Positions 312 through 15,745 of a stretch of 15,745 nucleotides of DNA are shown here, one piece after another. This DNA is from Candidatus Thorarchaeota archaeon (lineage in GTDB: Archaea > Asgardarchaeota > Thorarchaeia > Thorarchaeales > Thorarchaeaceae): NCBI GenBank assembly GCA_016839445.1, contig JAEOUG010000174.1, forward strand, positions 1 to 15,745. Reading direction: 5' to 3'. Made by a program: the position numbers and the translations under genes. The notes under the pieces were generated by a model. That model was given only the letters and a program-made list of their open reading frames with translations, ran no database searches and was not told where the DNA came from. The first letter of the stretch is position 1; the number at the start of each line of letters is the position of its first letter.

Positions 312-2453
312 TTGAGATACACAAGATTGAGAATTCTGTTGAGCACGCTTCTCCTGTTGTCTATGGTTGCGAGCCCTGTGCTTCCAGCCTTCGCACTACA
401 GGGTGACAGCGCACTTGCTTCCCCTGGAAGCATAGAGAACACGAGAATCGGTGTCCTTGAAGAAGAAAGCGTAGCTTCAGGCCATCCTGATACGAACTAT
501 GACGGAAGCACGACACAAGGCGGCGTCTGGGTTGGTTATGATGGAGGTGGTGCGGCATACGCACGTGCCTGGCTCAAATACGACCTGAGGAGCATTCCCA
601 AGGAAATCGGGATTCTGAGCGTTCACCTGAATCTGTACTGCAATGCTGAGTGGATGACCACGACTGACCTTCCTGTTGGTATCTTCTACTCTGAGGACAA
701 TACCTGGACGGAAACAGCAATCACATGGAATAATCAGCCGTCCTTTGACGCGGCTCCAGCAGATACAATCGACTCACCAGCAAGCCCAGACATGTTCGTT
801 CCATACAGCTGGTATAGCTGGGACGTAACCGCCTCATTCTCAGATGCTCTTGCCAAGGAGAAGATACTGACTCTGGTCTTGAAGCAGATTGACGAGGCAA
901 GTGCTGAAACGACGTGGAAGTACTTCATTGAGAAAGAATACAACCCTGCCCTTGCATCCTATCTCAGTGTTGAGTACCAAACACCAGACACGACTAATCT
1001 CGCTGTGGATGGGAAGACAACCACGCCTGCATTAGAACAGATTCGAGACTCCACTCCAGAGCTCAGCTGGCTCATGACGGACTCTGGAACAGGTGAGTAT
1101 CAGAGGGACTTCCAGCTTGAGGTGAACTCTGATGCAGCTTTCGCAGGCGCCTCACTCTGGGACATCAGCCACACCTATCTGTCCACGATTCACGATTCGG
1201 ATGGTGCCACAAACACGCGGCCATTCGCAACAGATGACGAGATGAGGTTCCAAATGAAGTTTGAGACCGCACTCCTCAGTGAGTCTGGTATGGTTGACAA
1301 GCTTCTTTTCGAGGTCAATGAGGCAAGCGGCACCATGGTGTTCGAGAACTTCACCATTGCCATGGTCAATACTCCCCTTGCGGGAGATCTGACAGCAGAC
1401 TTCCAGGCCAACTACAATGTTTCCAGACCGACAACTGTGCTGAAACGAACAGTTTTCAGCGCCCCGATTGTGGACCACTGGTTCACTGTGGATATCGAGA
1501 ACACATTCTTCCTGAATGCTAGGTACAATCTAATCATCGAACTCTGGTTCACAAACAGCACAGGTACGCTCTCCGTCACCAACCAAACGGGTAGCATAGG
1601 AGGGTCAGTAGCATACAACTACGGTGCGGGAGCTATTGCCTCCACTACGGCACCCTATGTATACCCGCGCGGACACAGCGTCAAGGTTGAGTTCATGTCT
1701 ACAAAGCTCTTCGAGAACGACGATTTTCTAAGCAACTCCTATCCCTTCAATACCAACAATGGCTATCCTGGGATCTTCCAGCTGAAGTACAACAAGTCAA
1801 TGATTGGTGATACCGGCGTAGTTGACAGCATCATATTCCCTGCCACTAGTATGTTGGGAGACGTGGTCTACGAGGGATTTGAGGTCTTTCTTGCAGAGAG
1901 CCCACTCCTTGGAGAGCTATCGCACACCAACTTTGCCCAGAACTACGGAGGTACCACTCCAACCAAGGTACTCGATGAGTCCACATATGTGATTAGGAAC
2001 CTTGACGGGGCAATCGTCATAGATGTTGACAACGTGTTCGAATACACGGGAGAGCATGATCTCCTGATCGAAATCGTTTGGGACAACAAAGTGTCTGGAG
2101 GCATCAGTGTTTACCGCACTCTTGATGCAGGGGGATACAGAGCCTACAACCTGACTGCAATGTCCACCAACGTTGCTGCCAACGACACGAGGACGTACGA
2201 TGCGTTCCTTACGATGGTCCACAGTGAGAATCTCATCGAGTATGCTGGAACTGACTTGGTGAACGGCACAACCTACTACTGGCGCGTGAGAACGTGCGAC
2301 AGCACTGGAATCTGGTCCGACTGGGTCAGTGGGAGCTTCAAGTGGGAGCCGCTCACAGGCGGCATCAACCCGGTTCTCATTCTTGCAGTGGCCGGTGTCG
2401 GACTGGTCGTGGTTGTTATCGTAGTGCTTATGCAGCGCCGCAAGAAAGAGTAG
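312..2453 (+). CDS. Secreted, membrane-anchored surface glycoprotein: signal peptide, DNRLRE/CBM96-like domain, split FN3-like domain with two inserted repeats, C-terminal TM anchor
   Basis: 713-aa ORF with TTG start. Basic plus hydrophobic N-terminus. DNRLRE-like motifs (PDTNY, RAWLKYDL, WTETAITWNNQP, WYSWDVT). FN3-like motifs TPELSW...YQRDFQLEV...LWD and YAGTDL..GTTYYWRVRTCDSTGIWSDW. C-terminal hydrophobic helix followed by RRKKE. Eight N-X-S/T sequons. Confidence 0.9.
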   Translation: MRYTRLRILLSTLLLLSMVASPVLPAFALQGDSALASPGSIENTRIGVLEEESVASGHPDTNYDGSTTQGGVWVGYDGGGAAYARAWLKYDLRSIPKEIGILSVHLNLYCNAEWMTTTDLPVGIFYSEDNTWTETAITWNNQPSFDAAPADTIDSPASPDMFVPYSWYSWDVTASFSDALAKEKILTLVLKQIDEASAETTWKYFIEKEYNPALASYLSVEYQTPDTTNLAVDGKTTTPALEQIRDSTPELSWLMTDSGTGEYQRDFQLEVNSDAAFAGASLWDISHTYLSTIHDSDGATNTRPFATDDEMRFQMKFETALLSESGMVDKLLFEVNEASGTMVFENFTIAMVNTPLAGDLTADFQANYNVSRPTTVLKRTVFSAPIVDHWFTVDIENTFFLNARYNLIIELWFTNSTGTLSVTNQTGSIGGSVAYNYGAGAIASTTAPYVYPRGHSVKVEFMSTKLFENDDFLSNSYPFNTNNGYPGIFQLKYNKSMIGDTGVVDSIIFPATSMLGDVVYEGFEVFLAESPLLGELSHTNFAQNYGGTTPTKVLDESTYVIRNLDGAIVIDVDNVFEYTGEHDLLIEIVWDNKVSGGISVYRTLDAGGYRAYNLTAMSTNVAANDTRTYDAFLTMVHSENLIEYAGTDLVNGTTYYWRVRTCDSTGIWSDWVSGSFKWEPLTGGINPVLILAVAGVGLVVVVIVVLMQRRKKE

Positions 2454-9317: not shown

Positions 9318-9839
9318 GTGAGCCGGAAATCGACCTCAGAACCCATCAGAGTCTTAGTGGATGCCTCAAAGGCCTCCAAGTGTGACTGGTGTGGTACGTT
9401 TGAGAGCTACAGCTGGCAGAGGACAAACTACGGGGGGTCTTTCTGCAGTTGGCAATGCAAGACCGCCTTCGAAAGAGACAGGGGAAAGAACCTGGGTGCG
9501 TGTCTGCTTTTCATTGGGCTGCCTCTTGCCTTGGTCCTGATGACGAATCCAGAAACATTCGCCGGAGGGGTCGGACTTGCCTGGATCGCTGCTGCAGGTG
9601 GGCTACCCCTCGCATATGTCTACATCGCTGGGGGAAGAGCCCGCAAGAAGGTACCCAAGGGATCCCAGAGACCAGGGCAGCAGTCCGAATACGCTCTCAT
9701 GAGATCAATGTCTGGCCCAATGAAGTGTCCTAACTGCGACGGCAACATTGACCTCTCTGCGGTCAGCCCTGACATGGTCTATCACTGTGGCTACTGCGGC
9801 GCTTCGGGCCGGGTCCAAATGATCTATCGAGGGACCTAG
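9318..9839 (+). CDS. Membrane protein with two zinc-binding domains (N-terminal CxxC...FCSxxC, two TM helices, C-terminal CxxC...CxxC ribbon)
   Basis: CDWC...FCSWQC; two hydrophobic helices; CPNC...CGYC. TTTATA at 9279-9284 upstream. Its stop shares CTAG (9836-9839) with the convergent gene. Confidence 0.82.
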   Translation: MSRKSTSEPIRVLVDASKASKCDWCGTFESYSWQRTNYGGSFCSWQCKTAFERDRGKNLGACLLFIGLPLALVLMTNPETFAGGVGLAWIAAAGGLPLAYVYIAGGRARKKVPKGSQRPGQQSEYALMRSMSGPMKCPNCDGNIDLSAVSPDMVYHCGYCGASGRVQMIYRGT

Positions 9840-11527
9840 TCAAGCTCTGCCTTCTTGGACTCCAGAATCTGCGTAATCTCGCTTCGGATAGACCGACACA
9901 GGACTTGGGCCAATTCGACTTTCTCAGGAGTTGCGGGCCTGCTTGTGACCTCAAGGAACTTGCTGGCCAAGACCTGACTGAGCTCTGCTTCAATGGGCCC
10001 TATCTGGGATGGTGGTGCAATGCCGGGCCCAATCTGACGCTTGAGCTGCATCATAAGGTCCTGAATCTTCAGCAGGGAGGATCGTACCTCTCTCTTGTTG
10101 TGTGCCTCAGTATCCCATTCGTCAAGGGCATGACCAACCTCGTCTTCGAGCTTCGACTCTTGACTGGCAACGGCCTTCATGGTCGCTTCAATAGCCGGAG
10201 ATATCAGCTCACGTGCATACTCCTTCTTGTCTGACTCTCTCTTGCGCTTGATAGTCTCAGCCAAGGTGTCATCTCCTAGGATACGATCGATGGCATCAAT
10301 CAAGTCGTTTACAGCCTTGATTCGGGCCTTGGCGGCCTCAAGCTCTCCAGCCTCGACCTCATGTCGGCTCTTCTTTACCGAGTCAGATAGACCGTCGACC
10401 ACGCGAATGAGTGGCTCGGGCTCCAACGGGGTGTCTTCGATTGAGGACTTCAGGAGGCCAAAGCGTCCATCTGTCACATCTGCGTCATGCAGGAGCTTCT
10501 CTCCCTCCTTGTAGTCCTTCAGTAGAATCGCTGCCGGACCAGCCTGGAGGCTGTACTCCGTCTTCAACTTGTCAGAGTAGGAACCTCTGACGACAACGGC
10601 GTACTCCTTCTTCCCCACAAGCTCCTCGGTTGCTTTGACCACGACTGCAATGTCCAGTGAATCGCCACCAGCTAGCATAGGGATGGACTTGGCTCGTTCA
10701 CCAGAGGAGAAGCCGAGGCCTTCGTCAAAGCTCCATTCGAATCGTAGATTCAGTGCTTCACCCTCACCTGTATTCTTGACGATCAATCGAACAGGGAACT
10801 CCTCGCTGAAAGTGAGGTCGACCGGAATCATGAGCTGAGTGTTGATCTTCGGAACCTTGAGCTTACCACGGAGTATCTCGCGAACCATATCGAGACCGCG
10901 GTCTACATACCTGCTGAACTCTTGGCTACCTGCGCTGGCGAGAGACGCCTTCAACTCTGTGACTACTGCGTTCTCTGCAGCAGCGAAGGAGTCGAGGCTC
11001 ATGGACTGAATCGAGGTCTCCAGCATCTGGGGGATCTGACTCAAGCGTACAGTGGCAGGAAGTCTGATTTTGGAAGCATGCTCCGCGTTGAAGCCCCTCG
11101 CGCGGTAGAAGCCATCTGCCTCCTTGCCGACCATGATGTAGATCATGCTGGCTGCGACTGCAATAGCAATGCCCTTGCTCGTCTCGGCGTCCTCGCCCCA
11201 CATGAGGTGCTCGGCAGCGGCAGAGAATAGGTCATCTGCAGCAGACTGATAGGCCTGGACTGCTCGCGATGCATCTGCCATATCGGAGTAGACGTCACCA
11301 GCCTTGCACATGAACAGAGCCGACTTCTTGTAGCTCTTCGAACTACGGTACTCGAAAGCAGAGTTGACGAAAGCCTCAGCAGCGAGATCGTACTCTCGTT
11401 CCGCAGTGGTCATGTCCCCATTCTGTTCAGCGGTTGCAGCGGCTTCAATGTGTTTCCTACCCGCCGACTGGCGAATGGCGTCTCTCTGTGACTCCTCAAT
11501 CCATCTCTTGGCTCTCTCATCCGACAT
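9836..11527 (-). CDS. Hypothetical multidomain protein: TPR/SNAP-like helical N-terminus, CARDB/Ig-like domain, C-terminal coiled coil
   Basis: 563-aa ORF with GGAG 9 nt upstream of the ATG. Ala/Tyr-rich helical repeats in aa 20-150; V.L.VKNTGEGEALNL...L.GG.S...V...Y.D beta-sandwich pattern in aa about 225-338; E/K/A-rich helical tail. No signal peptide or clear TM anchor. Confidence 0.88.
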   Translation of the reverse strand: MSDERAKRWIEESQRDAIRQSAGRKHIEAAATAEQNGDMTTAEREYDLAAEAFVNSAFEYRSSKSYKKSALFMCKAGDVYSDMADASRAVQAYQSAADDLFSAAAEHLMWGEDAETSKGIAIAVAASMIYIMVGKEADGFYRARGFNAEHASKIRLPATVRLSQIPQMLETSIQSMSLDSFAAAENAVVTELKASLASAGSQEFSRYVDRGLDMVREILRGKLKVPKINTQLMIPVDLTFSEEFPVRLIVKNTGEGEALNLRFEWSFDEGLGFSSGERAKSIPMLAGGDSLDIAVVVKATEELVGKKEYAVVVRGSYSDKLKTEYSLQAGPAAILLKDYKEGEKLLHDADVTDGRFGLLKSSIEDTPLEPEPLIRVVDGLSDSVKKSRHEVEAGELEAAKARIKAVNDLIDAIDRILGDDTLAETIKRKRESDKKEYARELISPAIEATMKAVASQESKLEDEVGHALDEWDTEAHNKREVRSSLLKIQDLMMQLKRQIGPGIAPPSQIGPIEAELSQVLASKFLEVTSRPATPEKVELAQVLCRSIRSEITQILESKKAELD

Positions 11528-11607
11528 CTGAATAGACTCCTACACGGACTTCTCTTGGCTGGTAGCTCGTCCTTATCGTGTTTTCGGCAAGCGAATCTCA
11601 AATCAAC

Positions 11608-11901
11608 TCAATAGACTTCTCTTGGCGAGTGCTTCAGACGATCCGGGAGGCCTCCACCGTGACCTTCAATCACTAGCTCGAAGCCTCTGCCGATCCGAGG
11701 CCCGGCGGATGTCTGAAAGCCCACCTTCTCAATCCCACGAGCATTGCGCTCAGCCGCACGACGCTCAATCATGCTGGTTCCCGTAGGAACCGTAAGTATC
11801 AGACGCTTCTGAGCCTCATCGACAGTCAAAGTGATGCTTGTCTGAGGCGTCCCAGAAACCTCATGGAACTGGCTGTTCCTATACTCAAGTGTCTTCTTCA
11901 T
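11608..11901 (-). CDS. Small hypothetical protein, possibly a divergent single gelsolin-like domain
   Basis: 97-aa ORF with ATG start and GGTG upstream, co-oriented with and 80 nt upstream of the 563-aa gene. Strand-strand-helix pattern ITLTVDEAQKRLILTVPTGTSMIERRAAERNARGI. Confidence 0.72.
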   Translation of the reverse strand: MKKTLEYRNSQFHEVSGTPQTSITLTVDEAQKRLILTVPTGTSMIERRAAERNARGIEKVGFQTSAGPRIGRGFELVIEGHGGGLPDRLKHSPREVY

Positions 11902-12125
11902 CGAACTGTTACACCATCCCTACGTCAGTTCTGGATTCACCCTAGCTCGGGCACATATTAGGATTAGTGCGACGAAAGGTTCCATGACAGAACCTAGGAG
12001 ATTGTGAATCCGAGAGGCATATATGAACCTGTGAACACAGAGGGTCCTGCTCAAGGGAGCCCGTCCAGACTGCATCTAGGGACCCACCTAGGTAGTCGGA
12101 TGAGACCATTCGCGTGGTTCGCAAG

Positions 12126-13538
12126 ATGCACGAATACGACATTGTCATAGTCGGTGCTGGGCCAGGAGGCTCTACCGCTGCAAAAGAGGCCGCAGAGAAG
12201 GGGCTGAAGACTGTCTTCTTCGAGCGGGGTAGGAAGCCAGGAGAGAAGAACTCCTCAGGAAGCGGGCTTGGACCCCGGCTTTGGAGAGAGTTCGATTTCA
12301 TGAGGGATCTCACGCCCGAAGTATGCCCCTCAATGAGGGCGGGGGCTGCTGCACGGAACTACTTCGTTGACAGCGACGGCGAGGTCTCTGGCTACATCAT
12401 GACGAAGCCCACTGACTCTGTAACCTATGAACCTGCTAGGAGCTGGATCACAATGAACTGCTATCGCAGCGAGTTTGATCCTTGGCTTGCTGGACTTGCT
12501 GTCGACGCAGGAGCAGAACTCAGAACCTCCACGCTCGTCACTGGTCTGCTGAAGGAAGACGGGAAGATTGTTGGAGTCATCGACGAGAGGGGAGAGAAAT
12601 ACAAGGGCTTTGTCATTGGGGCGGATGGAGTAGTTTCGATGGTTGCACGACAGTCGGGACTAAGACACAGATGGGAGCAGCGACAAGTGACCATTGTCCC
12701 GCAGTATGACTTCGAGTGTTCCCCCTCCAAGATTGACGACATAATGGGTGATGAGGCCCTGGCAGTCTGGTGGTCTGCGACGTTTCCTGCCGCGTATCAG
12801 GCCTTCTTCAACGACGGATTTCATATCGGGCTGGGCAACTGGATGACCTGGTGGGACAAGAATCCAGTCCACTATCTCAACAAGGTAGTCAATCTGAAGT
12901 ACTTCCAGCGTCTGGTGAGAGTACTGGACGCAAAGCCCAGGGAGTTCCAAGCACACCTCTTGCCATGGCAAGGTTCTCCTCACGATACTCACACTGACAA
13001 CGTCATCCTGATTGGTGACGCAGGTGGATTCCCATGCCCGCTTGAGGCCGAGGGAATGTACCCCGCCATGGTGACTGCAAGGGCCGCAGTCGAGACAGCT
13101 GCAGAAGCGCTTGCTGAAGGCGACACATCGAAGGAATCCCTATCGATATATGACGAGAAATGGATGGCCACTTCTGTTGGCGAAGACTTCAAGGCAGGAC
13201 CCGAGCTAGAGCACATTTGGCGAGCGCTTCCTTTCAGTCCAAGGAAGACAATGTCATGGTTCGTACCCATGTTCACGGAAATAACTGGAGGAATCATGGA
13301 TTGGTCCGAGGCCCATCCAGTCAGAGTCAGGCAGGTTGCTCGTCGAATCAAGCAGTATCTCCCCCAGGCGGTTCCGTTCATCATGAAAGAGGTCCTTCCG
13401 CTGCTGAACGCGATTCTGGGAGAGGAGAAGATGGATCTCCTCACGAATCCTGAACGATTGCTCACCGAGCTGCCAGAGCTTGAGGAGGCAATCACCAATG
13501 CCTTCATGGATGACGACGAAGAGGAGGGAACAGAATGA
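12126..13538 (+). CDS. FAD-dependent oxidoreductase, FixC / geranylgeranyl reductase family (COG0644)
   Basis: YDIVIVGAGPGG; ERGRKPGEKNSSG (FixC-like); R.EFDPWLA..A..AGA; IGADG; EFQAHLLP; LIGDAGG..P..AEGM..AM. The ATG at 12126 is preferred over the GTG at 12114. Confidence 0.92.
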   Translation: MHEYDIVIVGAGPGGSTAAKEAAEKGLKTVFFERGRKPGEKNSSGSGLGPRLWREFDFMRDLTPEVCPSMRAGAAARNYFVDSDGEVSGYIMTKPTDSVTYEPARSWITMNCYRSEFDPWLAGLAVDAGAELRTSTLVTGLLKEDGKIVGVIDERGEKYKGFVIGADGVVSMVARQSGLRHRWEQRQVTIVPQYDFECSPSKIDDIMGDEALAVWWSATFPAAYQAFFNDGFHIGLGNWMTWWDKNPVHYLNKVVNLKYFQRLVRVLDAKPREFQAHLLPWQGSPHDTHTDNVILIGDAGGFPCPLEAEGMYPAMVTARAAVETAAEALAEGDTSKESLSIYDEKWMATSVGEDFKAGPELEHIWRALPFSPRKTMSWFVPMFTEITGGIMDWSEAHPVRVRQVARRIKQYLPQAVPFIMKEVLPLLNAILGEEKMDLLTNPERLLTELPELEEAITNAFMDDDEEEGTE

Positions 13539-13804
13539 AGATAGACCACAAGCAGCTCGTGACTAGAGTTGGGGACACCGGCGACTTCATCACCATTGAC
13601 CAAAGCAAGTGCACAGCCTGTGGGCGTTGTCTCGTCATCTGTGTGATGAATCTCTGGAAGAAGCGGGAAAACAGCGTATACATTGTGAGTGACTACAAGT
13701 CACACTGCATAGAGTGTGGGGCCTGCGCCCAAGTGTGTGAAAGCGACGCCATTCAGTTCTCTTATCCTGCGGGTGGAACTGGTGTAGTCTACGAGAAGGG
13801 CTAA
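13535..13804 (+). CDS. 2[4Fe-4S] ferredoxin, FixX-like
   Basis: CTACGRCLVIC and CIECGACAQVC; C-terminal YPAGGTGVVYEKG is the FixX-type tail. ATGA overlap with the upstream gene. Confidence 0.92.
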   Translation: MKIDHKQLVTRVGDTGDFITIDQSKCTACGRCLVICVMNLWKKRENSVYIVSDYKSHCIECGACAQVCESDAIQFSYPAGGTGVVYEKG

Positions 13805-13876: not shown

Positions 13877-14158
13877 CTAGTCTGGTGGCGGTGGTGGAGG
13901 AGGAACATCATCCTGCCTCGTATCGACCTTGGTCAGGACCGAGTCGCGCTTCTTCTTAGTTAGGACGAAGCCCATTATGATGAAGATTAATCCCACTACG
14001 GCAACGACGGCGCCGATCAGGACAGTGTACCCGGGTATGAAATCATAAGCGGGATCGTACCCAGGGAGCAAAGCCAGAATGGCTCCGGCAATAACCATCA
14101 GTGCACCAAGACAGACAGGTCCTGAGCGCACGTATTCTCGCCAAGTTAAGTAGCTCAA
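13877..14158 (-). CDS. Small 2-TM membrane protein with a C-terminal polyproline tail
   Basis: 93 aa, TTG start with GGAG upstream; two hydrophobic helices, a KKKR stop-transfer segment, and the ending DDVPPPPPPPD. Confidence 0.8.
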   Translation of the reverse strand: MSYLTWREYVRSGPVCLGALMVIAGAILALLPGYDPAYDFIPGYTVLIGAVVAVVGLIFIIMGFVLTKKKRDSVLTKVDTRQDDVPPPPPPPD

Positions 14159-14253: not shown

Positions 14254-15120
14254 TCAGATTTCAAATGACACAATACACCCCGTCGACGATGTATTGACCG
14301 AAATCTTGAGACCGGTTAGCTCAGACAGCTTCTTGGCGATAATCTCATGGAGGGCACAAGGATAGGCCGCTGGCACTCGGGAGAGCTTTGGGTCAATCTC
14401 TCTGCAAATGCGGAGAACGTCACAATTCTGCGTTTCGACGGTTGCTCTGTCGGTGCCGGTCTTTGGTAGTTGACTCTCGGCAGCGCAAGACTGAATGAGA
14501 GATCCGAATCCCCTTACTGCTGCGTACGGGTCAGTGGGGTCAGACCACCTCCGGATGAATTCGTCAGCAATCCGACCAAATATCGCCTCAAGATGACCTG
14601 AAGGTAGGGATGCGCCATAGGCCGATGCTTCTGCAATCATGATGGCATGGGCTTCCGCACTGGCTTTCCATGCATCTTCACCCACAACTCTGAGAAGTGG
14701 CGGAACCTCACCCAGCCTCATGTCGGGGAAGTCCTCAGATGATTCACCCGCAGGAAGTGCAACTCCAGAGTCCTCGCCAGTAGCCACACTGGCAGACACT
14801 GCCGGAGTTCCGTCATCATAGACGAGGTCGGGAACCTCGAAGTTGGGACAGACGCCAGAGGTCTGATAGCGCCTCGCAAACTGCATCAGTCGGCCCGCCA
14901 TCTGAGCCACAGCGTGTCTGCTGAGTCCCTCTACTCTGATATGGCCGTAGGCAACTCCAACCATGTTGTCAATCTCAAGACTTGGAATGGGCTTCTCTGC
15001 GATGATCTTCTTGCCCCTGACCACTCGCACTGCCCACTTCTCATTCAGTACGCCAGCCTGAGCGGCGTAGCTTGTGTTGGTAATCCCAACAAGAGGAGAG
15101 ATTGGATAGAAGTCCGACAT
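14254..15120 (-). CDS. Two-domain hypothetical protein with a Cys-containing V4R/MetOD1-like C-terminal domain
   Basis: 288-aa ORF with GGAG upstream. N-terminal domain of about 100 aa, acidic linker, then C-terminal VETQNC..L.IC...PCALHE.I...L...G..I.V.....GC.V.F. Confidence 0.8.
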   Translation of the reverse strand: MSDFYPISPLVGITNTSYAAQAGVLNEKWAVRVVRGKKIIAEKPIPSLEIDNMVGVAYGHIRVEGLSRHAVAQMAGRLMQFARRYQTSGVCPNFEVPDLVYDDGTPAVSASVATGEDSGVALPAGESSEDFPDMRLGEVPPLLRVVGEDAWKASAEAHAIMIAEASAYGASLPSGHLEAIFGRIADEFIRRWSDPTDPYAAVRGFGSLIQSCAAESQLPKTGTDRATVETQNCDVLRICREIDPKLSRVPAAYPCALHEIIAKKLSELTGLKISVNTSSTGCIVSFEI

Positions 15121-15200: not shown

Positions 15201-15745
15201 CTAGAGGGTACCTTCTGATGTCCCGAAAGTCACTCTCAGGGTGATTATGGAATGGGCGTCGACAGGGACTTCAACAGAATTGCTGTCTGATTTGATCTCA
15301 CCGATATCTCTGTCGAGCAGGTCAGTTAGCTCTACCCGTTCTACTCGACGAGCGAACCGGAGCGAGGAAGTGCCTGATGCACCTTTTGGCTCGAATAGCC
15401 GAACCATGATCTGTTCGGCTCTGTCTGTCGGCCTCACAGACGAGAGGACCAAGTCAACACCTTCAATCTCAATCGAGGGACTCTCGGGGCTGAGCGTCCC
15501 TCCTTGGCCGTCGAGCGGATAGGAAATCAGCGGGAGCCTGTGCTCCATTGAGACACGCCACACATTTGCATCACTCCACGAGCCGCTGTGCGAGTGAAGC
15601 GTGTACCTGTAGTGATGCGGCCCCGTGTCTCGTGCAGTTCGAGTTTCCAGAATGTCGTCATCCAGTCCATGTGAAAGGTACTCCACACTCCTCAGGATTG
15701 TGGCTGAGAGGTTGCCGTCCTGGAATCCGAACTCATGGAGTCCTG
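15201..15745 (-). CDS. C-terminal part of a GH38 alpha-mannosidase (5'-truncated by the window)
   Basis: The frame is open to the window edge: GLHEF...LSATILRSVEYLS...G.HHYRYTL..H...VLSSVR...IMVRLFE..G...VELTDLLD...SIITLRV matches GH38 C-terminal beta domains. Confidence 0.88.
   Translation of the reverse strand, partial: GLHEFGFQDGNLSATILRSVEYLSHGLDDDILETRTARDTGPHHYRYTLHSHSGSWSDANVWRVSMEHRLPLISYPLDGQGGTLSPESPSIEIEGVDLVLSSVRPTDRAEQIMVRLFEPKGASGTSSLRFARRVERVELTDLLDRDIGEIKSDSNSVEVPVDAHSIITLRVTFGTSEGTL

Follow-up and report, generated by a model that had tools for sequence, protein, structure and literature searches.

Proteins of the alpha-SNAP/Sec17 type measure about 290 residues, and their fold consists of a twisted sheet of nine helices and a globular bundle. 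In the large TRAPP subunits TRAPPC8 and TRAPPC11, as in adaptin-type proteins, a helical solenoid precedes a beta-sandwich. Among the actin-related proteins of Asgard archaea, ProGel, 1DGelX and 2DGel from Thor have been reported by Akil et al. 2020 (PMC7444086) to regulate actin in vitro. In this study, P0001, a minus-strand gene of a Candidatus Thorarchaeota archaeon, was investigated; it lies in a stretch of 15,745 nucleotides (contig JAEOUG010000174.1, assembly GCA_016839445.1), all of which is referred to as the window. An original prediction, made from the letters of the window, had read the gene product as a cytoplasmic SNAP/Sec17-like protein fused to an immunoglobulin (Ig)-like domain and a coiled coil. 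The analysis indicates that the P0001 protein is probably a soluble non-enzymatic scaffold and not a SNAP. As an overall explanation, a non-enzymatic scaffold of TPR-like repeats, an Ig-like domain and a helical tail, encoded with a possible membrane/actin gene cluster in Thorarchaeia, accounts best for the observations, although this is held tentatively and at somewhat less than even confidence.

A conserved protein family of Asgard archaea

The open reading frame (ORF) of P0001 begins with ATG and encodes 563 residues. Just four open codons lie upstream of this ATG, giving an open frame of 567 residues, and in the alignment its start methionine coincides with that of the homologs. The ORF is a real, conserved gene. 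A word-indexed search returned 218 homologous proteins at an expectation (E) value of 1e-3 or below, and among the 120 of these that were listed most are full length, with 556-592 residues. When 1.84 billion representative proteins were scanned exhaustively with HMMER, 60 clusters were obtained at the same threshold. Over the 20 close relatives aligned in A1, column identity averages 64%. The homologs are annotated as hypothetical, with the exception of two JGI entries that bear the name "TPR repeat protein".

All homologs with a named organism come from Asgard archaea, comprising Thorarchaeota, Promethearchaeota, Hermod-, Loki-, Baldr-, Odin- and Wukongarchaeota, Hodarchaeales and Kariarchaeaceae, and none of them is bacterial. 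The original prediction had placed the DNA in a probable Asgard archaeon, with which Thorarchaeota and the other Asgard classes among the named homologs agree; the wide bacterial distribution that it considered adverse to its reading was not seen. A survey of phyletic distribution, which it had proposed, found the family in 210 of 301 sampled genomes of the window's phylum (E ≤1e-3), including 70 of the 90 high-quality genomes. The family f12 is devoid of it (0 of 19 genomes at this threshold), and the matches in 54 of the 68 genomes of family f9 are weak (E 1e-5 to 1e-9), those listed spanning little beyond the Ig-like domain.

Helical repeats, an Ig-like domain and a helical tail

The layout of the protein follows the one originally predicted, with a helical N-terminal domain, an Ig-like domain and a helical tail (Table 1). 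The peptide stretches on which that prediction relied are present at residues 46-99 and about 123-184, its position for the Ig-like domain (nucleotides 10855-10513) corresponds to residues 225-339, and the lack of a signal peptide was confirmed, the N-terminus being hydrophilic. These helical repeats, the Ig-like domain and the helical tail support an adaptor in an Asgard archaeon, which was part of the same prediction.

Residues 1-228 are helical and alanine-rich, and only the first 100 or so appear repeat-like. The part that is best conserved across Asgard starts at about residue 96, and distant relatives match the profile at positions of about 96-410. P0001 itself has no TPR match in Pfam at E ≤1. 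In the relatives, TPR_12 matches 8 of 20 below threshold (best 25.1 bits against a cut-off of 30.1), and TPR_7, TPR_8 and MIT give further sub-threshold matches. Searches against PDB sequences pointed in the same direction, in that the broad family profile A4 found the consensus TPR protein CTPR3Y3 (E 4.4e-4), profile A1 found CTPR-rv4 (E 0.045), and profile A7, made from a clade of 592-residue proteins, found a consensus TPR (CTPR) at E 0.031. CTPR3Y3, CTPR-rv4, the PH0952 sensor and MamA are the best PDB matches of the family profiles; in contrast to such consensus TPR proteins, none of the members scanned passes the cut-off of any curated TPR model in Pfam. The helical-repeat domain would bind a protein or peptide ligand.

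Ahead of the Ig-like domain, a Lys-x-Pro-Lys linker is conserved, and P226, N252, G254 and D319 are invariant in a broad alignment of 25 diverse members. At E ≤1, the Ig region of the A1 proteins matches CARDB in 15, TRAP_beta in 10 and DUF11 in 8 of the 20. The distant member P0140 exceeds the curated cut-offs of both CARDB (27.8 against 22.7 bits) and DUF11 (28.4 against 24.6 bits). Because the window's own protein has no CARDB or DUF11 match at E ≤1 in the Pfam scan, its Ig-like membership rests on the family alignment, by which it is assigned a predicted Ig-like domain of the CARDB/DUF11 type.

The TRAP_beta matches, of which the best has an E value of 4.1e-4, would also be expected if P0001 were homologous to TRAP-beta, the beta subunit of the translocon-associated protein. 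TRAP-beta chains are found by the A4 profile in the PDB (E 0.006), and Asgard TRAP homologs are reported by Eme et al. 2023 (PMC10307638). However, the match is limited to about 55 residues of the Ig-like domain, where CARDB, DUF11 and NPCBM_assoc fit equally well, and P0001 has neither signal peptide nor transmembrane (TM) anchor and is three times as long as TRAP-beta (chains of 183-186 residues). TRAP-beta identity was rejected on topology, and its probability is close to nil.

No TM segment was found in P0001, the maximum hydropathy over 19 residues being 1.53. A hydrophobic, nearly invariant helix at about residues 116-134 was considered as a TM segment and rejected, as just 3 of 25 members reach 1.6 and the other 22 stay under the TM threshold. 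The protein is cytoplasmic. The Pfam and PDB searches revealed no catalytic family in it, and the only signals found were TPR-like and Ig-like.

The remaining 228 residues are helical by composition (53% A/E/L/K/R/Q/M), and prolines and glycines at 367-372, 444, 500-511 and 531-534 split this tail into segments. Other lineages have much longer tails rich in E and K instead of this type of C-terminal region. In the 592-residue clade, the C-terminal region (A7 positions 429-585, about window 9836-10200) weakly matches helical-bundle proteins in the PDB, namely 3hiu (E 3.6e-4) and TIP47/PLIN3 (E 0.007), the latter also being the top PDB match of the clade member P0108. These matches may be compositional; if real, they hint at an amphipathic bundle in the tail. 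The tail of P0001 would serve to bundle or oligomerise.

TRAPPC8, TRAPPC11 and adaptin-type proteins likewise have a beta-sandwich after a helical solenoid. Given this similar architecture, P0001 might be a tethering adaptor that is related, or analogous, to the large TRAPP subunits. In an Atlas feature search, in which the homolog P0046 was used as query in place of P0001, eukaryotic clusters of TRAPPC11 (0.76) and Foie-gras/TRAPPC8 (0.75) were indeed listed. These scores are far under the tool's line of 0.9, and shuffled proteins reach 0.8 one third of the time. Moreover, the Foie-gras_1 and Ig_TPPC8 models have no match at the P0001 ORF at E ≤10, and no TRAPP-type neighbour was found, a V4R/Bet3 assignment of a nearby 288-residue protein being without support (see below). 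In contrast to the large subunits and adaptin-type proteins, P0001 is much smaller, carries a helical tail and lacks the support of sequence models. A TRAPP relationship is considered very unlikely.

The SNAP-like signal

The SNAP model PF14938 provides the sole Pfam match of P0001, in which two TPR-like hairpins (residues 40-97) are aligned with profile positions 25-82 of 282. The alpha/gamma-SNAP hairpin pattern of the original prediction persists as a weak likeness, the match scoring 10.8 bits (E 0.34) where the cut-off is 25. Among the A1 relatives, 9 of 20 match PF14938 at E ≤1. Six members of the 592-residue clade were scanned singly, and SNAP was the top-ranked model in three of them, with P0108 (33 bits) as the only protein over the cut-off, both among these six and among the 20 relatives. 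In this clade the matches are confined to profile positions 22-105, about 80 of the 282, and they coincide with matches to generic TPR models. Another span seen among family members is 30-86. In one distant relative, residues 9-121 align with profile positions 77-183, a shift of register that is the kind of match repeats give.

The globular C-terminal bundle of SNAP corresponds to profile positions beyond about 190. It had been predicted at residues 120-190 of P0001, yet no alignment in any member reaches it, the furthest profile position being 105 in the close relatives and 183 in the one distant relative. The remainder of the SNAP sheet is likewise reached by no match of the family, and P0001, with 563 residues, an Ig-like domain and a long tail, differs from alpha-SNAP/Sec17 in size and composition of domains. 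In addition, the best conservation across Asgard begins past the SNAP-like stretch.

PF14938 was not specific to SNAP in these searches. It matches proteins in 10 of 14 control prokaryotes without SNAP, exceeding its cut-off in 2 of them. In the genome from which the window derives, 11 places match the model; P0001 is the weakest (12.6 bits), and four of the others are over the cut-off.

The comparison that the original prediction had proposed, SNAP ranked above generic TPR, came out in reverse on sequence profiles. With the A7 profile, Sec17 (E 4.7) and alpha-SNAP (E 4.8, over 67 residues) were outranked by the consensus TPR (E 0.031); no SNAP is found among the three PDB matches of the A1 profile or among the best 60 of the 72 matches of the A4 profile. 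P0108 as a single sequence matches alpha-SNAP chains at E 0.5-1.5, so that the SNAP signal is weakened by profile building. All PDB alignments to SNAP span 67-80 residues. Generic TPR similarity, which had been named as the main alternative, is essentially what the searches yielded, with the weak SNAP matches described above beside it. In the Atlas search with the N-terminal domain of P0046, the nearest named clusters carry a SNAP Pfam label, with scores of 0.85-0.89 that fall below the 0.9 line. Only archaeal clusters, some of them from Methanobacteriota, Bathyarchaeota and Nitrososphaerota, were obtained, and no eukaryotic SNAP cluster was retrieved.

No SNARE or synaptobrevin domain over cut-off was detected in the genome, which is 89.8% complete (PF05739, best E 0.33; PF00957, best E 0.13), and the scores of these models equal the level of the control prokaryotes. 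A literature search returned no report of an Asgard SNAP in the text portions it covered; in the corresponding passages of one paper, a phrase of the "NSF attachment protein" type is applied to SNAREs. SNAP is not listed in section 11 of Eme et al. 2023 (PMC10307638), whose Supplementary Table 3 may list further families, and in a preprint by Liu et al. 2020 TPR is regarded as a promiscuous domain.

On contig C138 of the same genome, a 416-residue protein (L002:1408-2658, plus strand) has SNAP-labelled TPR repeats followed by two CARDB-type Ig domains, and a convergent neighbour encodes a helical protein of 245 residues (L002:2660-3397, minus strand) that also matches the SNAP model. The match of the larger protein has 25.2 bits and covers profile positions 34-184. 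Both are better "SNAP-like" candidates than P0001, yet they look like generic TPR proteins. P0001 has in common with these archaeal SNAP-labelled proteins the same kind of helical repeats, and with the 416-residue protein the order of repeats and a CARDB-type Ig domain. The Ig domains of the two align with an hhalign probability of 92.5 (E 4.7e-7), a relation between their N-terminal domains was not detectable (BLASTP E 0.13), and P0001 differs in having its own conserved core (about residues 96-228) and a helical tail.

It is concluded that the "SNAP" signal belongs to a class of TPR-like repeats that is widespread in archaea. A true SNAP/Sec17 homolog with extra domains, which would recruit a Cdc48/NSF-like ATPase to SNARE-like complexes, is largely refuted and is regarded as highly improbable. 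As an orthologue of SNAP/Sec17, P0001 was rejected on its sub-cut-off score, the partial coverage, the non-specific model and the absence of a SNARE-domain gene over cut-off; the NSF-recruiting, proto-trafficking role of the original prediction is accordingly unsupported.

A conserved gene string in Thorarchaeia

A comparison of the surroundings of P0001 at 59 Thorarchaeota-type loci showed a conserved string of genes, all on one strand. It consists of genes for a 288-residue Cys-rich protein (50 of 59 loci), a 93-residue protein (53), a 97-residue protein (58) and the P0001 homolog (59), and a convergent aminotransferase gene follows in 47 loci. In 58 of the 59 loci, the 97-residue gene lies directly upstream of the P0001 homolog on the same strand; the one locus without it begins at a contig edge. 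Identity across the loci is higher for the 97-residue protein (66-84%) than for the P0001 protein (41-62%). A Shine-Dalgarno-like AGGAG box precedes the ATG of P0001 (Table 1), and of 9 aligned loci, 7 have a similar box at the equivalent position. The short intergenic gap and this box suggest that the 97-residue gene and P0001 are co-transcribed, the box presumably serving the translation of P0001 within the shared transcript. In Thorarchaeia, both proteins would be made from one transcript, and P0001 is probably co-expressed with this mini-gelsolin-like protein.

Table 1. Coordinates of P0001, its predicted domains and associated features (positions in the window unless a locus is named)
Feature	Coordinates	Strand	Basis
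P0001, 563-residue cytoplasmic protein of a pan-Asgard family	9836-11527	minus	ORF and translation, homolog searches
Predicted N-terminal helical TPR-like domain, residues 1-228, including the weakly "SNAP-like" residues 40-97	10844-11527	minus	Pfam/PDB profile matches
Predicted Ig-like beta-sandwich, residues 229-335, CARDB/DUF11/TRAP-beta type, preceded by invariant P226	10523-10843	minus	Pfam matches, alignment, hhalign
Predicted helical C-terminal region, residues 336-563 and stop, variable in length	9836-10522	minus	alignments, composition
AGGAG Shine-Dalgarno-like box, 9 nucleotides before the P0001 ATG, in the 80-nucleotide gap after the 97-residue gene	11537-11541	minus	sequence
P0002, 97-residue partner, putative divergent gelsolin/cofilin-like single domain, invariant C-terminal tail	11608-11901	minus	synteny, hhalign
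P0291, 93-residue protein, two hydrophobic helices, invariant C-terminal poly-proline tail ending in Asp	13877-14158	minus	alignment A5, hydropathy
P0290, 288-residue Cys-rich protein, first gene of the same-strand string	14254-15120	minus	synteny 50/59
Gelsolin fusions of family f22	L128:2922-4157; L130:1774-3009; L131:1002-2165	plus; minus; plus	
Further gelsolin fusions of family f22	L132:2055-3263; L133:873-2051; L134:914-2074	minus; plus; plus	

The 93-residue protein has hydropathy peaks of 2.4-3.0 in its two helices and a basic juxtamembrane motif, and its invariant tail comprises seven to eight prolines before the terminal Asp. Runs of six or more consecutive prolines occur in just 3 ORFs (of at least 60 residues) of the genome. 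Proline runs are classic ligands of profilin, which they recruit, and the tail could be a profilin-type ligand.

In the 288-residue protein, the invariant residues C212, C233, C255, H258, E259 and C282 look like a metal site. No Pfam match at E ≤10 was obtained for any of 18 members, and the PDB search gave none. The family has 209 homologs; among the 120 listed none has a Pfam domain, and the named ones all come from Thorarchaeota-type genomes. A V4R/Bet3 identity, suggested by its pattern of cysteines, was rejected, there being no Pfam or PDB match and the V4R model being silent at that gene.

In the window, genes for a flavin adenine dinucleotide-dependent oxidoreductase and a 2x[4Fe-4S] ferredoxin (12114-13804, plus strand) are inserted between the 93- and 97-residue genes, an insertion found at 0 of 59 other related loci. 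The other genes of the window are mostly metabolic, comprising an aminotransferase, an amine oxidase, a methyltransferase, an HIT protein and a CBM96 protein. This last is a protein of 713 residues with CBM96 and a Rha78A-type Ig domain (312-2453, plus strand). At the opposite end, the C-terminal beta-sandwich of a GH38-type mannosidase (15201-15743, minus strand) runs off the window; this gene stands ahead of the string in 23 of the 59 loci.

The 97-residue neighbour and gelsolins

Of all neighbours of P0001, the 97-residue protein is the most revealing. No Pfam or PDB match was found for it, and as a plain Pfam gelsolin it was rejected, PF00626 giving no match. A relation to gelsolins is suggested by way of a bridging family of proteins with 250-310 residues that is found across Asgard. 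The 97-residue family aligns with the N-terminal domain of the bridging family at an hhalign probability of 98.4 (E 4.9e-15), and the bridging family in turn aligns with six verified gelsolin domains at a probability of 93.7 (E 1.8e-7). Pfam Gelsolin matches 3 of 7 bridging proteins scanned below threshold (E 0.0011-0.15). In a genome-wide search, a hidden Markov model (HMM) of the bridging family retrieved the 97-residue protein (E 4.3e-14), a paralog of it (6.8e-14), a ProGel (1.5e-5) and an ORF of the 1DGelX type (1.3e-4). The profile-profile homology of the 97-residue family to gelsolin domains is thus transitive, and the protein is regarded with moderate confidence as a divergent gelsolin/cofilin-like domain.

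With ProGel, 1DGelX and 2DGel as described in PMC7444086, the 97-residue protein has this remote homology via the bridging family in common, and its length corresponds to one gelsolin domain. It differs from Asgard gelsolins in lacking the Trp-x-Gly of the gelsolin-type motif, which the bridging family has, in being missed by Pfam Gelsolin, and in an invariant C-terminal tail that is peculiar to it. The paralog lies unlinked on another contig (G000:C114:33827-34129, plus strand) and shares the tail Leu-Pro-Asp/Glu-Arg-Leu-x-His-Ser-Pro-Arg-Glu-Val-Tyr. A related tail is kept in the families f12 and f13, both without P0001 homologs, and its ligand is therefore probably not P0001 alone.

Six of the 7 genomes of family f22 encode ORFs of 386-411 residues in which a domain of the 97-residue type forms the C-terminal part (Table 1). 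In the four fusions scanned, the N-terminal half consists of two Pfam gelsolin repeats (E 1e-21 to 1e-24), and a Pro-rich linker separates the repeats of the fusions from the third domain, which scores 43 bits (E 2e-11) against A3, the profile of the 97-residue family. These fusions may be three-domain gelsolin-like proteins; Asgard gelsolins of just one and two domains are described in the portions of the literature covered.

Does the gene cluster link P0001 to actin?

The conserved string leads to the question whether P0001 acts in a specific assembly at the membrane and the actin cytoskeleton. As a mechanism, the P0001 protein would act together with the two-TM 93-residue protein, whose cytoplasmic tail ends in the proline run, giving an assembly at the interface of the two. 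The membrane hairpin would present the proline run, and the TPR-Ig scaffold would bridge the hairpin to the mini-gelsolin. A specific link of P0001 to both actin and the membrane is possible but doubtful. The fuller proposal, in which P0001, the 97-residue gelsolin-like protein and the two-TM poly-proline protein form a Thorarchaeial membrane-to-actin module and the scaffold family is an Asgard cytoskeleton adaptor without a role as SNAP or in trafficking, is unlikely as it stands.

Recurrence of gelsolin-like genes outside Thorarchaeia bears on this question. In a sample of 19 loci from 13 other families, each with a P0001 homolog, the 97-residue profile matched only genes of the bridging family, for proteins of 252 and 269 residues at two f22 loci (L108 and L109), which lie 2.3-3 kb upstream of the P0001 homolog on the opposite strand. 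At L098, from the sister family f2, a 1DGelX-type gene of 342 residues is located 3.6 kb downstream of the homolog, and a two-TM gene lies directly upstream of it. Counting Thor, a gelsolin-like gene is present within 4 kb of the P0001 homolog in 3 of 14 families. A rough Poisson estimate, based on 7 such genes in 2.9 Mb and 8 kb on either side, gives 0.017 for at least 3 of 14 families by chance. This recurrence is suggestive and no more. At two loci of family f27 (L110:7338-7679, plus; L111:8837-9214, minus), a small protein is encoded directly upstream of the P0001 homolog; by eye it looks like a PRC-barrel-like N-terminus followed by a helix. Compared by hhalign with the 1DGelX-type, bridging, 288-residue and 97-residue families, P0001 gave probabilities below 1 throughout.

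Several observations weigh against a membrane and actin role. The Poisson estimate was made only once the pattern had been noticed, and two of the families counted, f1 and f2, are sisters. Across the 19 distant loci, the 288-residue family is absent and the two-TM family occurs once, so the neighbourhood is not conserved beyond Thorarchaeia and the sister family. The gelsolin assignment itself is weak in direct comparisons, in which the HMM of the 97-residue family scores -0.8 bits against canonical gelsolin repeats and its direct hhalign comparison with gelsolin domains has a probability of 20.8 (E 0.0011). Within the window's genome, PF00626 finds genes on contigs C182, C21, C98 and C5 and neither the 97-residue gene nor its paralog. 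The 97-residue family, which occurs in 81 of 151 sampled genomes of the phylum, is present in 19 of 19 f12 genomes, where P0001 homologs are absent from all 19, and Thor genomes hold a second copy that adjoins no TPR-Ig gene. It is not an obligate partner of P0001.

The same observations are accommodated by a generic TPR-Ig scaffold unrelated to actin, such as a co-chaperone, an assembly factor or an ESCRT-associated adaptor, next to which the gelsolin-like gene would be a lineage-specific accident of gene order. In that case a cluster confined to Thorarchaeia and the sister family, and a 97-residue family distributed independently of P0001, would be expected. Two further points agree with it, namely the position of P0001 homologs at L101 and L102 beside LSm-like and ribosomal-protein-like ORFs (judged by eye), and weak MIT matches in 8 of 20 members (best E 0.013), with the SKD1 MIT domain at E 0.46. 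Against it stand the gelsolin-like genes near P0001 homologs in three of the 14 sampled families and an adjacency of the 97-residue gene that is maintained in all loci but one even though P0001 identity drops to 41%. A scaffold of this kind is a real possibility, if short of probable. The preferred explanation remains the non-enzymatic TPR-Ig-helical scaffold encoded with a possible membrane/actin cluster in Thorarchaeia.

Implications

An Asgard SNAP would imply NSF/SNARE-type fusion machinery of pre-eukaryotic age, and P0001 provides no evidence for that. A tempting false positive is removed by this result, and the Pfam SNAP model should not be taken at face value in archaea. P0001 represents an uncharacterised conserved family that is confined to Asgard in all data searched, and the 97-residue family would be a further branch of Asgard gelsolin-like domains, overlooked by standard models. 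If the membrane-to-actin proposal is true, the scaffolds would constitute a previously unrecognised family of Asgard cytoskeleton adaptors, present in most Asgard classes including Hodarchaeales. The conserved cluster offers a concrete, testable link from a membrane protein to regulators of actin, in those archaea that stand nearest to eukaryotes.

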